From the UHGV virus genome UHGV-0182401: DNA of 40,878 nt; one strand, 5' to 3'. This stretch comes from a virus. Positions 2,950 through 40,878 of this stretch are shown here, piece by piece. The position numbers and the translations under genes were made by a program. A model generated the notes under the pieces. It saw only the letters and a list, made by a program, of their open reading frames with translations. It did no database searches and was not told the DNA's origin. Each line of letters opens with the position of its first letter. The stretch's first letter is position 1.

Positions 2950-3162
2950 ATGGACACCGTTAACGGAATGTGTTCAGACGCACCGCGTGCCAAAAAATGT
3001 AAATGCGGAAAATCACCGACAATATTCGACATGGAGAACGGGTGCCAAATCTACTGCGCTAACCACGCTGCTGTGGCGGCCGCGAATTATCGCAGTGCGG
3101 TAACGGAGTGGAATAACCTGAAATCTGTTAGAGAGGGAAGTCATGAAAAAACTAACCTTTGA
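2950..3162 (+). CDS. Small Cys-rich hypothetical protein (70 aa)
   Basis: ORF with GAGGGGGA ribosome-binding site; five cysteines including CKC and CxxxC spacing suggest metal binding. Confidence 0.5.
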   Translation: MDTVNGMCSDAPRAKKCKCGKSPTIFDMENGCQIYCANHAAVAAANYRSAVTEWNNLKSVREGSHEKTNL

Positions 3163-20720: not shown

Positions 20721-21881
20721 ATGACGCAGGGCTTACCTGTATCCAACGTTGTAAACGTTGATGTGATCATCTCGCCGAAAGCGGCTACTGGTCGTAACTT
20801 CGGCGCATTGCTAATCCTTGGCTCTTCCACTGTCATTCCGGTGACAGAACGTACTCGCCTATATGCTTCCATTGAGGACATTGGCGAAGACTTCGGTGTC
20901 GACAGCCCGGAATATAAAGCAGCGCAGGTTTTCTTCAGCCAGTCACCGAAGCCGACACAGGTTTATGTTGGTCGCTGGGCGAAGACGCTGAGTTCTTCCG
21001 AGAGTGGAGATACTGAAACTATCGTGCAAGCCGTTAATGCCTGCCTGCAATATACCAACTGGTATGGGCTGGTTGTCGCTGATGATGTTGTCGCTGGTGG
21101 CGATGTGCTTGATGCTGATGACGTGATTGAGGTTGCTAAACTCATCGAAGCGTCCAGCCTGAGCCGCATTTTCGGGGTAACATCTGCTGACGCCGAGATT
21201 ATCAGCACGACTTCGACGACTGATGTTGCGTCGAAATTAAAGGCTGGCAAGTATTCCCGTACCTTTGTTCAGTATTCCACCAGCAGCCCTTATGCGGCTG
21301 TTTCAGCTTTCGGTCGCGCGTTTACTGTCAATTTCAACGGCAGCAATACCACCATTACCCTGAAATTCAAACAGGAACCGAGCGTAACCTACGAAACGCT
21401 GACGGTAGGACAGGCGGCGGCTGTGGATGCGAAGAATGCGAACGTGTTCGTGTACTACGCCAACGACACGGCGATCCTGCAACAGGGCGTCATGGCGAAC
21501 GGTGACTTCTTCGACGAGCGCCACGGGCTCGACTGGTTGCAGAACTACGTTCAGACCAACCTCTATAACCTGCTTTACACCAGCACCACCAAAATTCCGC
21601 AGACTGATGCCGGTGTGACCCGTCTGCTTTCCAACGTTGAACAGTCCATGGATCAGTCCGTCACGAACGGTCTGGTAGCGGCTGGCGTGTGGAATGGTGG
21701 ACCTATCGGACAGCTGAATTCCGGCGATACGCTGACCAAAGGTTATTACGTGTATGCGCAACCTCTTTCAGAACAGGCGCAGGCCGACCGAGAAGCTCGC
21801 AAAGCACCGTTAATTCAGGTGGCCTGTAAGCTGGCTGGCGCAGTTCATTATGCCGATGTGCAGATCAACGTGGTTCGCTAA
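20721..21881 (+). CDS. Putative tail sheath protein
   Basis: 386 aa followed by tube, frameshifted chaperone pair and tape measure, the P2-like order; size close to P2 sheath. Confidence 0.55.
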
Positions 21882-30811: not shown

Positions 30812-31692
30812 TGGCAACAAATAACTTTAAAGCGTTCGCGCTTGATCCTAACGCTAACGTCATGTCACAGGCAGACTGGGAAGCGCTTCCGGCGCTGCTG
30901 TCTGGTTTTACTGCCGGGAAGGCCTCCAGTGCGCAGGTTAACAAGGCGTTGCGGCAGAGCAGTACCATGGCAGCTGTTATCGCGCAATTCATGGCTGATA
31001 AAACAGGACAGGATGTACTGGATAATGGTAACACCAGCCAATTAGAGGCGATATTTGCCAGTGCAATCCAGGGGCGTCTAATCAATGTCCGTGTGTTTAC
31101 ATCATCCGGGACTTACACGCCAACCAATGGAACAAAGTCGATTATCGTCGAAGTGCAAGGAGGAGGCGGAGGTGGTGGTAATGCCAAGGCCACTTCGTCC
31201 ACCACATATACATTGACCTCATCGGGAGGGGCTGGTGGGTATGCTAAATCCAGACTTACCAATCTTGCCGCCTCTTATTCTGTAACTGTAGGAGCAGGAG
31301 GCGCGGGAGGTGTTTCTGGAGGGCAGTCAGTTTTTGGCTCTATTACATGCGGAGGAGGAGGTGCTGGCAGCCAAATAGGCGGGTCTTATACAGCATCGAG
31401 CAGTGTAGTAACACTTGGCGCATCAGGAGGCGATGCTTCGGGTGGCAATATAGTTAATGTTCCTGGTTCGAGTGCCGATCCGTCACTTTTAATCGCTGGC
31501 GGGGCTGTGTCTGCTGTTGGTGGAAATTCAGTCATCGGTACTGGTGGGAAAGGTGCCGGTTCTTCTTCTGCTACCGGACTTCCTGGAACACTAGGCGGCG
31601 GTGGTGGTGGTGCTAATGCCGCTGGAAATACTACGTTAATTGCTGGCGGTAAAGGCGGTGACGGTATTGTTATAATTTGGGAGTTTGCATGA
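30811..31692 (+). CDS. Tail fibre protein with glycine-rich repeats
   Basis: Long Gly/Ser/Ala-rich repeat tracts (GGGGGGNAK..., TLGGGGGGANAAG...). Confidence 0.65.
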   Translation: MATNNFKAFALDPNANVMSQADWEALPALLSGFTAGKASSAQVNKALRQSSTMAAVIAQFMADKTGQDVLDNGNTSQLEAIFASAIQGRLINVRVFTSSGTYTPTNGTKSIIVEVQGGGGGGGNAKATSSTTYTLTSSGGAGGYAKSRLTNLAASYSVTVGAGGAGGVSGGQSVFGSITCGGGGAGSQIGGSYTASSSVVTLGASGGDASGGNIVNVPGSSADPSLLIAGGAVSAVGGNSVIGTGGKGAGSSSATGLPGTLGGGGGGANAAGNTTLIAGGKGGDGIVIIWEFA

Positions 31693-32087
31693 TGGCTATT
31701 TACGCATTAGTTAAAGACGGCGTTGTAGAAAACACAGTCATCTGGGATGGGGGAGGTGATTTGTTTCCTGACTACCAGGCGGTTGAACTGAACGAAAATG
31801 AAACCGCTGGTCCGGGATGGACTTATGACGGAACTGAGTTCTATCCTCCAGTTGAACCGGAAAAGAGCCATGAAGAGTTGGTGGTTGAGGCTGAGCAGCA
31901 GAAAGAAGCTTTATTGTCAGAGGCGCAGACAACGATAAGCCTTTGGCAAACTGAACTGCAACTTGGCATCATCAGCGACGAAGATAAGGCAAGTCTGATC
32001 GCGTGGGTTCAGTACATCAAAGCCCTTAAGGCGGTCGACACGTCGAAAGCTCCGGATATCACCTGGCCTGTGCCACCAGCGACTTAA
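31689..32087 (+). CDS. Tail fibre assembly chaperone
   Basis: Small gene immediately after the fibre gene with ATGA overlap. Confidence 0.6.
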   Translation: MMAIYALVKDGVVENTVIWDGGGDLFPDYQAVELNENETAGPGWTYDGTEFYPPVEPEKSHEELVVEAEQQKEALLSEAQTTISLWQTELQLGIISDEDKASLIAWVQYIKALKAVDTSKAPDITWPVPPAT

Positions 32088-32225
32088 TTTCATTTTGGCG
32101 ATGTGCCATATTTGTGTCATACGTGGTAAATCGCCTTTCACTATCTTGCGTCATGTGCCATTGAGTTATGCAATGTGAATGCGGCAATGTACATGTAAAA
32201 CAGTTAGTTAAAAGTGATTCTACTA

Positions 32226-32271
32226 ATTCGTAATGCGAAGGTCGTAGGTTCGACTCCTATTATCGGCACCA
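32226..32271 (+). other. Phage attachment core: 3-prime 46 nt of tRNA-Thr (thrW-like), anticodon loop to CCA
   Basis: ATTCGTAATGCGAAGGTCGTAGGTTCGACTCCTATTATCGGCACCA matches the remembered 3-prime part of E. coli thrW; 14 nt from the integrase stop. Confidence 0.7.
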
Positions 32272-32285
32272 CTAACCACGCGGGT

Positions 32286-33449
32286 TCACGCGATATTCAC
32301 CAGTTCAGCAAAAGCGCCTTGTGCCATATTTGTGCCATTCCCCGCCAGAAATGAGTCGATTTGCATGGCATGCTGCGTCAGGTGATTCGGTGCCAGATGG
32401 GCATAACGCTGTACCATCTCGATACTTTCCCACCCGCCCATTTCCTGTAGCGCACTGAGTGGCACGCCGGACTGTACAAGCCAGCTTGCCCAGGTGTGCC
32501 GCAGGTCATGGAAGCGGAAATTTTCTATTCCCGCCCGCCTTAACGCTGCTCGCCATGCCGTGTTAGCATCAGACCGCATTTTGCGCACTGCCTTTGTTCT
32601 CGTTCCATCCGGGCGAACGGATGATTCAGTGTGAACAAAGACCCACCGGTTATGTTTCCCCAGCTGCTCCCGCAGCACCTTACAGGCCGATTCGTTCAGG
32701 GCGACCCCAATCGCCCTTCCTGCTTTCGCGTCCTCGGGGTGAATCCACGCGACCTTCCTCTGCATATCAATTTGTGACCACTCCAGATCGGTGATGTTCG
32801 ACCTGCGCAGCCCCGTCGCCAGTGCAAAAATAACAACTGGCTTCATATGCTCGGGAAGTTCCCGGATCAGGTTCGCCGCTTCCTCTTTGGTTAGCCAGCG
32901 AATACGCTTATTTTTCGGCACCGGGCATTTGATGTTCGGCGCCTTGGCTATCCATCGCCATTCGTTGGCCGCACATCGTAACAGCGCCCGGATGAAAGCA
33001 AGGTGCGTCGCCTTCGTCGCCAGCGACGCTGGTTTATCCTTAAATTCAGGAACCGGCTTACCTCTTCGCAGCAGGCTGTCCCGTTTCGCCTCCCAGTTCA
33101 TTCGATGTTTGCGATTAACCATCGAACTCACCGCCGACAAGATCCTGTCTTCCGTGATTGCTGACAGGTCCATTCCTTTGAAGTGCATTCTCCAGAATCC
33201 GATCCGGCTTTTGTCATCGTCCAGGCTTTTCTTGTGCTGCTTTTCGTTAAGCCAGCGAACGCACGCTTCATCGAACGTTCTCGGCTTAAACTCACCCATC
33301 TTATCAACTCGCCATGCTTCAGCTTTCAGCTGATCATAGAGCTCCTGCGCTTGCCTTTTGTCCGTTGTCCCAAGAGACCGTCTAATTCGACTTCCACCAG
33401 GCGTAACGAAGTCGCAGTGCCACGTACCGGCACGTTGTTTGATTGACAT
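32286..33449 (-). CDS. int: Tyrosine integrase
   Basis: 387 aa; N-terminus resembles remembered P22 Int; C-terminal HDLRHTWAS...Y catalytic region. Confidence 0.9.
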
Positions 33450-33673
33450 GCTTTAACCTCCTGCACATCAACCGCATTCACCGCGCTATTGTGTCTCACA
33501 GACTTAAGCGCCGCAATGCAGTCTGACTTGCAAATGCGATATGGGCTTTTAGGTTTATCTGGATTTATCTTTGCGGCCTGAAGTCGTCCACTTCGTATCC
33601 ACTGCGTGATAGTGCCTTTGTCTACCTTCAGATACGATGCTGCCTCTTCACGAGTGAAGATTTCTTCTTCCAC
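33326..33673 (-). CDS. xis: Excisionase-like helix-turn-helix protein
   Basis: [22 protein letters not shown] helix-turn-helix; directly upstream of and overlapping int. Confidence 0.55.
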
Positions 33674-33760
33674 TTGGAATCTCCATTTATTGAGTTGGTA
33701 TTATTGCGGTAGGTCTGGATATCTTGAGAAATGAACAGGCCTCATCGAGTGTGAGGCGGG

Positions 33761-34105
33761 TTAGTCCTTGCGTAGCTCGCTAATTCTTCTGTAAGTCTCT
33801 GGTGCTTTGTTTCCGTGTATCTTCATTTCAGACTTCAACAGAGCAACGAGGGAATCCCATTCGTTGAGGATGCCTTTGAATGCCGGAACGCGCTTTGCAA
33901 CCTTGTTGAATGAATCTCTGATTTCTGGAATCTGCTCAACAAGTGCAACGCATCGCCGAAAGTCTGCTGCGTCATGGGGAGCACCGAAGTAATGACCATA
34001 GATATTCTTTTTCAGTCCACATGCGATTGAGGCAAGAGTTGCGCTACTGATGCCAACATCGCCAGTCGATTGCCATTTCAAAACCTTCATAGCCAAATCT
34101 GACAT
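33761..34105 (-). CDS. Hypothetical protein (114 aa)
   Basis: Start placed at the internal ATG (MSDLAMK) because the track start codon lies inside a terminator hairpin; GGAGACAAG upstream. Confidence 0.5.
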   Translation of the reverse strand: MSDLAMKVLKWQSTGDVGISSATLASIACGLKKNIYGHYFGAPHDAADFRRCVALVEQIPEIRDSFNKVAKRVPAFKGILNEWDSLVALLKSEMKIHGNKAPETYRRISELRKD

Positions 34106-40641: not shown

Positions 40642-40857
40642 ATGAACAACATTGCCAACGAACGGAAAAAGCTTGGCATCACTCAATCTGCGTTAGCAGG
40701 CGCGTGTGGCTGGAACCAGTCCCGCTTAGCTAACTACGAGTCAGGTATCCGGACTCCAGATTTAGAGTCGTGCCGTAGCCTGGTAAAGGCGCTGAATAAA
40801 TTGGGGAGCAAGACAACGCTAGATGGCTTGTTCCCGCCGCGTAAGAACGCCGCATAA
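40642..40857 (+). CDS. cro: Cro-like helix-turn-helix regulator
   Basis: 71 aa XRE-type helix-turn-helix (LGITQSALAGACGWNQSRLANYESG), divergent from cI. Confidence 0.7.
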   Translation: MNNIANERKKLGITQSALAGACGWNQSRLANYESGIRTPDLESCRSLVKALNKLGSKTTLDGLFPPRKNAA

Positions 40858-40863
40858 GCAAAT

Positions 40864-40875
40864 TGCTCTTTAACA
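40864..40875 (+). promoter_or_regulatory. nutR boxA (TGCTCTTTAACA)
   Basis: Matches the rrn-type boxA consensus as remembered; its boxB partner is at positions 11-30. Confidence 0.55.
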
Positions 40876-40878
40876 GTC

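Follow-up and report, generated by a model that had tools for sequence, protein, structure and literature searches.

Why should a phage genome carry a piece of a host transfer RNA gene between its tail genes and its integrase gene? The question is raised by positions 32226–32271 (+ strand) of the virus genome UHGV-0182401, a stretch of 40,878 nt referred to below as the window. The letters of this block, ATTCGTAATGCGAAGGTCGTAGGTTCGACTCCTATTATCGGCACCA, are identical at 46 of 46 nt to the chromosomal tRNA-Thr(CGU) gene thrW, located 3′ of proB-proA in E. coli, from A31 to CCA76. The initial annotation had described the block as running from the anticodon loop as far as the CCA end of a thrW-like tRNA-Thr, and alignment to host tRNA-Thr genes bears this out: it is the exact 3′ part (positions 31–76) of the thrW gene beside proA, with a 5′ limit one base ahead of the anticodon loop and a 3′ limit at the CCA end. 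The 46-mer is present once in the window, and in shuffled sequences 0 matches are expected, even at 3 mismatches. ARAGORN detected 0 tRNA genes and no complete tRNA over the whole window, and an Rfam search of 31900–32600 with E values up to 10 returned no tRNA, only chance matches to miRNAs and sRNAs; the 46 nt are therefore a fragment and not a gene. A phage-encoded tRNA would be a complete cloverleaf, which is absent, only positions 31–76 being there. We conclude with high confidence that the block is the common core (O) of an attP, that the phage to which this attP belongs is temperate and lambdoid and has a contractile-tail module, and that the window is the whole genome of this phage. 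The site itself is ordinary: that P22/SfV-type phages attach in thrW at this sequence was known before, and finding the site here, in its attP form, leaves current understanding unchanged.

The neighbourhood of the core is that of a phage attachment site. As had been annotated, the core is placed between a tail fibre assembly gene (31677–32087, + strand) and an integrase gene (32286–33449, − strand). The former, the last of the late genes (Pfam Caudo_TAP, E 7e-27), ends 138 nt upstream of the core, and only 14 nt separate the CCA end from the stop codon of int, which is convergent with the tRNA fragment. After integration the tail fibre assembly gene would end the prophage at its attR side; its homologue adjoins the second copy of the core in a lysogen, E. 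coli O19:H7 730V1, described below. The 138 nt between this gene and the core (32088–32225) are non-coding and hold no lysogenic-conversion genes (gtrABC, oac), and in this the locus differs from P22, with gtrABC beside attP, and from the Shigella phages, in which the tail genes are separated from attP by gtrABC or oac, genes for O-antigen conversion. Several relatives have an acyltransferase gene at the equivalent spot (EcPF16, L003 39746–40783; L152 4833–5876; L154 477–1514).

The borders of the core can be read directly from integrated prophages. In searches covering 5,426 complete E. coli genomes, integrated prophages match on the int side from exactly 32226 onwards, over a region annotated as 'site-specific integrase | tRNA-Thr', and on the tail side the chromosome matches stop at exactly 32271, so that both borders of the 46-nt block are fixed independently. 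The initial annotation had also proposed looking in host genomes for a 46-bp core duplicated at both prophage ends, and this is what 730V1 contains: two exact 46-mers, 42,062 bp apart (L004 4274–4319 and 46336–46381), bracket a prophage syntenic with the window, the full tRNA-Thr being at the int end. The annotated order is phoE-proB-proA, complete tRNA-Thr, int, early genes, late genes, tail fibre assembly gene and second core, and local BLAST identifies this prophage as the window circularly permuted at the core, with 6351–32271 on one side and 32226–33566 on the other. In a three-way alignment the window has the structure P-O-P′, the proA-thrW-int junction B-O-P′ and the junction at the tail fibre end P-O-B′, and the sole block common to all three is the 46-nt core. 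Four further pairs of cores on the same contig were found in IMG/VR. In lysogens, attL thus consists of proA, a complete thrW and int; the tRNA gene is not truncated, since its 3′ part is also present on the phage. At attR, past the tail fibre assembly gene, the 46 nt recur as a displaced copy that is not functional.

The same target is found beside close relatives of the integrase. When Int relatives in other genomes were compared, using one genome per species, those of at least 72% identity adjoined tRNA-Thr(CGU) in 15 loci out of 15, most of them with the same 14-nt spacing between the int stop and the tRNA. Integration into thrW had been predicted from the window, and both this result and the identical core of phage SfI agree with it. 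At 68% identity or below, the relatives adjoin Arg(TCT), Lys(CTT), Met, Thr(TGT) or Ser genes with the geometry unchanged, and from these varied neighbours it appears that the Int family retargets between tRNA genes while the geometry is kept. Integrases of 42–68% identity, convergent with tRNA-Arg(TCT), Lys(CTT), Lys(TTT), Met(CAT), Thr(TGT) and Ser genes (L026–L090), occur in Enterobacterales, in Neisseriaceae and in other beta-proteobacteria.

The integrase is a protein of 387 aa of the tyrosine family (PF00589, E 1e-42), sharing 65% identity with P22 Int over 385 aa and 64% with the Int of mEp213. It is 100% identical to the Ints of prophages in Trabulsiella guamensis and Enterobacter bugandensis, and the modules of the window other than int are closest to coliphages. 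The predicted excisionase gene, xis (33326–33673, − strand; 115 aa, HTH_17), overlaps the start of int by 124 nt, as it does in P22, and the layout of the two genes is that of P22, SfI, ES18, mEp213 and HK542. The Xis protein is 84% identical to that of mEp213 and 44% identical to that of P22. Indeed, the first ~47 codons of int, together with xis and the next ORF, have 93% DNA identity to mEp213/mEp043 (33307–34000), and the difference between this 93% in DNA at the start and the 64% in protein over the remainder places within int a mosaic joint that separates the arm-binding part from what follows. Judging from these sequence relationships, the arm-binding domain and Xis seem to travel as a module, together with one of the two classes of arm repeat described next.

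The approximate full attP, with P arm, core and P′ arm, extends over ~250 bp (32095–32345; its limits are estimates) and holds five arm-type repeats. This size fits the 260 bp given for P22 in Table 1 of a review, where a 27-bp attB and a 116-aa Xis are also listed (PMC4111918). The repeat TGTG(C/T)CAT has 7 copies in the window, 5 of which, all on the same strand, are clustered in 237 bp about the core (Poisson P ~2e-12). The P arm contains a tandem pair of putative Int sites, TGTGCCAT-ATT-TGTGTCAT (32102–32120, + strand), whose offsets from the start of the core are −124 and −113, and a single putative site, TGTGCCAT (32154–32161, + strand), at −72; the P′ arm contains a second tandem pair, TGTGCCAT-ATT-TGTGCCAT (32320–32338, + strand), at +95 and +106, inside the last codons of int. 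This arrangement of two plus one repeats in P and two in P′ has matching positions in six phages. In mEp213, repeats of the form TGTGCCGT/TGTGACAT/TGTGCCAT occupy the five positions of the window attP, including the single site at −72, and in P22, ES18, SfI and the Hafnia phage yong1 repeats of the TGGGACA type are located at −125, −114, −60, +95 and +106. Across 22 att regions the class of repeat tracks the N-terminus of Int: TGTGCCAT goes with MSIKxRxGTWHCDF and TGGGACA with MSLFRRGETWYASF. The P′ sites are kept in 13 attL loci of the Int class of the window, and the P22 class has TGGGACA-N4-TGGGACA and a different Int N-terminus. Because the positions match and the repeats covary with the Int N-terminus, we identify the five repeats as arm-type sites, putatively bound by Int; the reading of such sites by the N-terminal domain of lambda-like integrases is part of the knowledge of lambda Int summarised in PMC2951348. 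The P′ sites double as the GTNMAQ codons of the C-terminal tail of Int, a place where the TGGGACA repeats of the P22 class encode VPNMSH. Since these sites are int codons, the sequence of the Int tail and that of the arm sites are locked together.

Other elements of the attP were also sought. Between the P-arm sites and the core lies a direct repeat, GCAATGTGAATG/GCAATGTACATG (32170–32195, + strand; repeat family D5), of which the GTGAATGCGG/GTGAGCGCAG portion is kept across phage classes; its position hints that it might contain sites for Xis or for an accessory protein. The IHF consensus WATCAANNNNTTR has no match with up to one mismatch in 32040–32400, and one of the references in PMC4111918 calls IHF dispensable for P22 in its title. 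Downstream of int we found no retroregulator or terminator resembling lambda sib, the fold of 32060–32290 on the minus strand having z = −0.31. The 23-mer ATGCGAAGGTCGTAGGTTCGACT (32233–32255, + strand), which corresponds to 21300–21322 of the P22 RefSeq sequence, is labelled as 'attP core/site' in the P22 and phage L records. We rejected it as a mapped overlap region, since a passage in PMC8022706 traces the P22 label to the homology report of Lindsey et al. 1992.

How does this locus compare with the known systems? The att region matches 109 phage records, and an attP for thrW is annotated in those of P22, ES18, SfI, mEp213, mEp043, HK542 and HK446. Of the elements of the thrW module, the window has core identity, a convergent P22-like Int, an overlapping xis and arm repeats, and its integrated relatives have the flanking repeats. 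(i) The Shigella phages SfI, SfII, SfIV, SfV and SfX have a letter-for-letter identical 46-bp core and the same order of int, xis and attP. In SfI the core was verified by sequencing attP, attB, attL and attR, and the 46-mer is stated to be common to SfII, SfV, SfX and P22 (PMC3636060); the same statement is made in the SfIV paper (PMC3851460). SfI, SfII and SfV also have contractile tails. For this group of phages, integration beside proA was verified by attP/attB/attL/attR sequencing. In contrast to the window phage, which is of the TGTGCCAT class, SfI has an Int and arm repeats (TGGGACA/TGAGACA) of the P22 class. (ii) P22, the prototype for biochemical work, shares the 46-bp identity to thrW, an Int of the same length and nearly the same positions of the arm repeats, but differs in the sequence of these repeats, in the Int N-terminus, in its more distant Xis and in its short tail. 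(iii) In mEp213, mEp043, HK542, HK446, HK75, mEpX2 and ECP1 the core is the same and the attP is annotated as 'thrW/ptwF, CP4-6 type'. The mEp213-type coliphages share the arm-repeat family TGTGCCGT/TGTGCCAT at identical positions and a closely related Xis, but the rest of Int is much less similar, and their tails are long and non-contractile. (iv) The attP of lambda, whose integrase is the paradigm of two-site binding, likewise has five arm-type sites over P and P′, a core flanked by arms, excision directed by Xis and, according to the Campbell model, integration as a circular permutation. However, its core is of 15 bp and lies between gal and bio, outside any tRNA gene, and in the window no IHF consensus was found in 32040–32400. 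(v) Epsilon34 and DLP12, which integrate in argU, have an integrase of the same family whose stop codon is a few nt from the convergent 3′ end of a tRNA gene; the identity block of this type of site is 43 bp (PMC2629481). (vi) The P4-type islands in thrW are different: they are identical to about the last 18 nt, and their P4-like integrase points the same way as the tRNA. In the window 46 nt are identical, and the Int, which is P22-like, is convergent with the tRNA fragment.

The life of the site may be pictured as follows. The infecting genome would circularise, and the N-terminal domain of the 387-aa Int would bind the five TGTG(C/T)CAT repeats (three of them in P, two in P′), while the core-binding and catalytic domains would bind the core. 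The core would then pair with the identical sequence of the host thrW, and strands would be exchanged within the 46 bp of identity. Excision would be directed by the 115-aa Xis, as homology predicts.

Where within the core the strands are exchanged is the point on which competing readings fare best. We sought to map it with allele tables for 60+ junctions, the association of alleles with the identity of the flanks and the allele frequencies in E. coli. A second thrW allele, G50-C64, a compensatory pair in the T stem, is carried by ~4.5% of E. coli records and also by Trabulsiella, Hafnia-like and other hosts. One reading is that exchange takes place near the 3′ side of the core, at tRNA positions 64–68 (~32259–32263 of the window), with the phage always being T-A; the thrW of the lysogen would then keep its own anticodon arm and T arm and gain about the last 10 nt from the phage. 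It accounts simply for several observations. Host G50-C64 alleles do exist; junctions with a P arm of the window-phage class on the left are T50-A64 in 33 cases out of 33, regardless of their right side, and those with the 5′ half of thrW on the left and a P′ arm of this class on the right carry either allele. Two same-genome pairs combine a G-C attL with a T-A attR (L108/L126, and also L011, in Trabulsiella guamensis; L095/L112). The Trabulsiella attL has T68 opposite the host G5, forming a G5-U68 pair in the tRNA, and its attR has C68, a difference that places the exchange 5′ of position 68. Moreover, the int flanks of EcPF16 (G-C) and L141 (T-A) are only 0.5% apart, and Hafnia phage yong1 is the only sequenced phage with this core to carry G-C: of the 109 phage records with a match to the att region, its two alone match a query with the G-C core.

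However, all these observations are reversible: they would look the same if the phage were G-C, the host T-A and the exchange left of position 50. The natural G50-C64/T50-A64 and T68/C68 variants fit exchange either left of 50 or between 64 and 68, and in each thrW array the allele may be assigned to the left or to the right flank, so that the variants do not fix the exchange point. With ~95% of E. coli thrW genes being T-A, 33 T-A junctions out of 33 are unsurprising for the hosts alone, and since markers 64 and 68 are 3 bp apart, a 7-bp overlap would hold a mismatch in Trabulsiella. In addition, the 46 nt are perfectly conserved across phage classes whose arms cannot be aligned, and the variant of yong1 is compensatory, two facts to be expected solely where the T arm from the phage becomes part of a working tRNA. 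We rate exchange at the 3′ side somewhat below an even chance. The alternative, in which the phage allele is G-C, the host allele is T-A and exchange occurs at the anticodon loop or at the centre of the core, fits the conservation of the 46 nt, the compensatory pair of yong1 and the usual rule for such sites, by which the identity block begins at the crossover and stops at the tRNA's 3′ end.

If exchange at 64–68 is true, most of the phage tRNA copy never enters the working gene, and the conservation of the core needs another cause, such as the recognition of core sites or recurrent homogenisation against the thrW of the host. If the unit formed by the Int N-terminus and Xis moves independently of the catalytic part, two arm specificities (TGTGCCAT and TGGGACA) serve one chromosomal target, and two arm-site classes on one target could interest builders of orthogonal integration tools. 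Only as a tentative proposal, which we think has perhaps one chance in three or slightly better, do we suggest that the integrase clade of the window phage exchanges at thrW positions 64–68 and that, separately, the Int N-terminus and Xis move as a unit.

A further reading places the locus in a chromosome rather than in a free phage genome. The initial annotation took the core to be in attP and not in attL or attR arrangement, and this holds: host DNA, which would lie beside the core at an integrated end, is found on neither flank, phage arms flank the one core on both sides, and the two ends of the window join. It had further argued that tail genes on one side and int on the other are the layout of a free genome. 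The conclusion stands, but the layout alone is no proof of it, since P-O-P′ also occurs in tandem arrays. The window might accordingly represent tandem prophages in a chromosome, its P-O-P′ being the internal junction of two integrated copies, and such junctions do occur at thrW: L002 contains a P arm of the P22 class, the core and a P′ arm of the window-phage class, and in 730V1 a second element lies immediately past attR. Nevertheless, we consider this highly improbable for the window, whose length is that of one genome, in which no matches to chromosomal genes were seen anywhere, and whose attP has the same class of arm repeat on both arms.

The ends of the window also argue against tandem copies. 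When its final 500 nt are placed in front of its first 500 nt, the resulting sequence aligns to phage ECP1 as a single unbroken stretch, at 99.7%. The final ORF is Cro-like and ends at the window end, the first is CII-like and starts at 88, and the window was opened between cro and cII, inside the nutR region (40642–40878 plus 1–420); the break is straddled by a boxA-like sequence, TGCTCTTTAACA (40864–40875), and by a hairpin, TTCCCGC..GCGGGAA (11–30). From the joined ends, the window is one closed and whole genome of a lambdoid phage, and together with the matching arm repeats on both sides of the core they settle its attP form. This genome is a mosaic, HK022/HK620-like in the early-right region and ECP1-like in the early-left region, with a contractile-tail module like that of Citrobacter phage Omnitron, and in the phage-record collection none of the records covers at least 80% of any stretch searched. 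The 'circular' record of Omnitron (L010, CP115737.1) begins at nt 3 of the core and has one extra T at its joined ends; it looks like a prophage excised at its att sites and closed in silico, rather than a sequenced circle.

The weakest of the alternatives, that the 46 nt are a decayed phage tRNA gene or a scrap of host DNA from an aberrant excision, with no role in integration, can draw on the tRNA genes and fragments often carried by phages and on the failure of ARAGORN and Rfam to see a functional tRNA, but is close to negligible in view of 0 substitutions in 46 nt between phage classes whose flanks have fully diverged, of prophage ends that coincide with the borders of the 46-mer in lysogens, and of the spacing to the int stop that recurs across Int relatives adjoining tRNA-Thr(CGU).

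With the block read as the attP core, the practical value of the result lies in the identification of the window as a complete temperate phage genome, whose prophage is predicted in thrW beside proA, and in the junction sequences it supplies for finding lysogens or checking them by PCR. Correct core coordinates also help to delimit prophages at thrW, which is a crowded site. Indeed, thrW is a hot spot for tandem insertions, including tandem phages, CP4-6-like elements and P4-type islands. In 730V1 a second integrase gene lies directly past attR (L004 3141–4319), and the mixed-arm junction of L002 occupies positions 3011–3056. The P4-type islands (L146 1073–1138; L093) have their insertion points within the final 18 nt of the reconstituted tRNA; L093, which had been a candidate for an unoccupied thrW, was rejected because it carries such an island with its P4-type integrase. 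We also rejected L152 as a secondary-site junction with a core broken at nt 18/19: another att system, adjacent to ybhB, makes up part of it, so that it is a hybrid. This other system, located beside ybhB-bioA, takes as its site the 3′ end of a fragment of a P4-like integrase (L152 6308–6400; L154 1500–1700; L155 500–700), and in L152 it is fused to a P arm of the window class and nt 1–18 of the core, with the breakpoint in the middle of the thrW core; as evidence on core exchange, the hybrid is at most suggestive.
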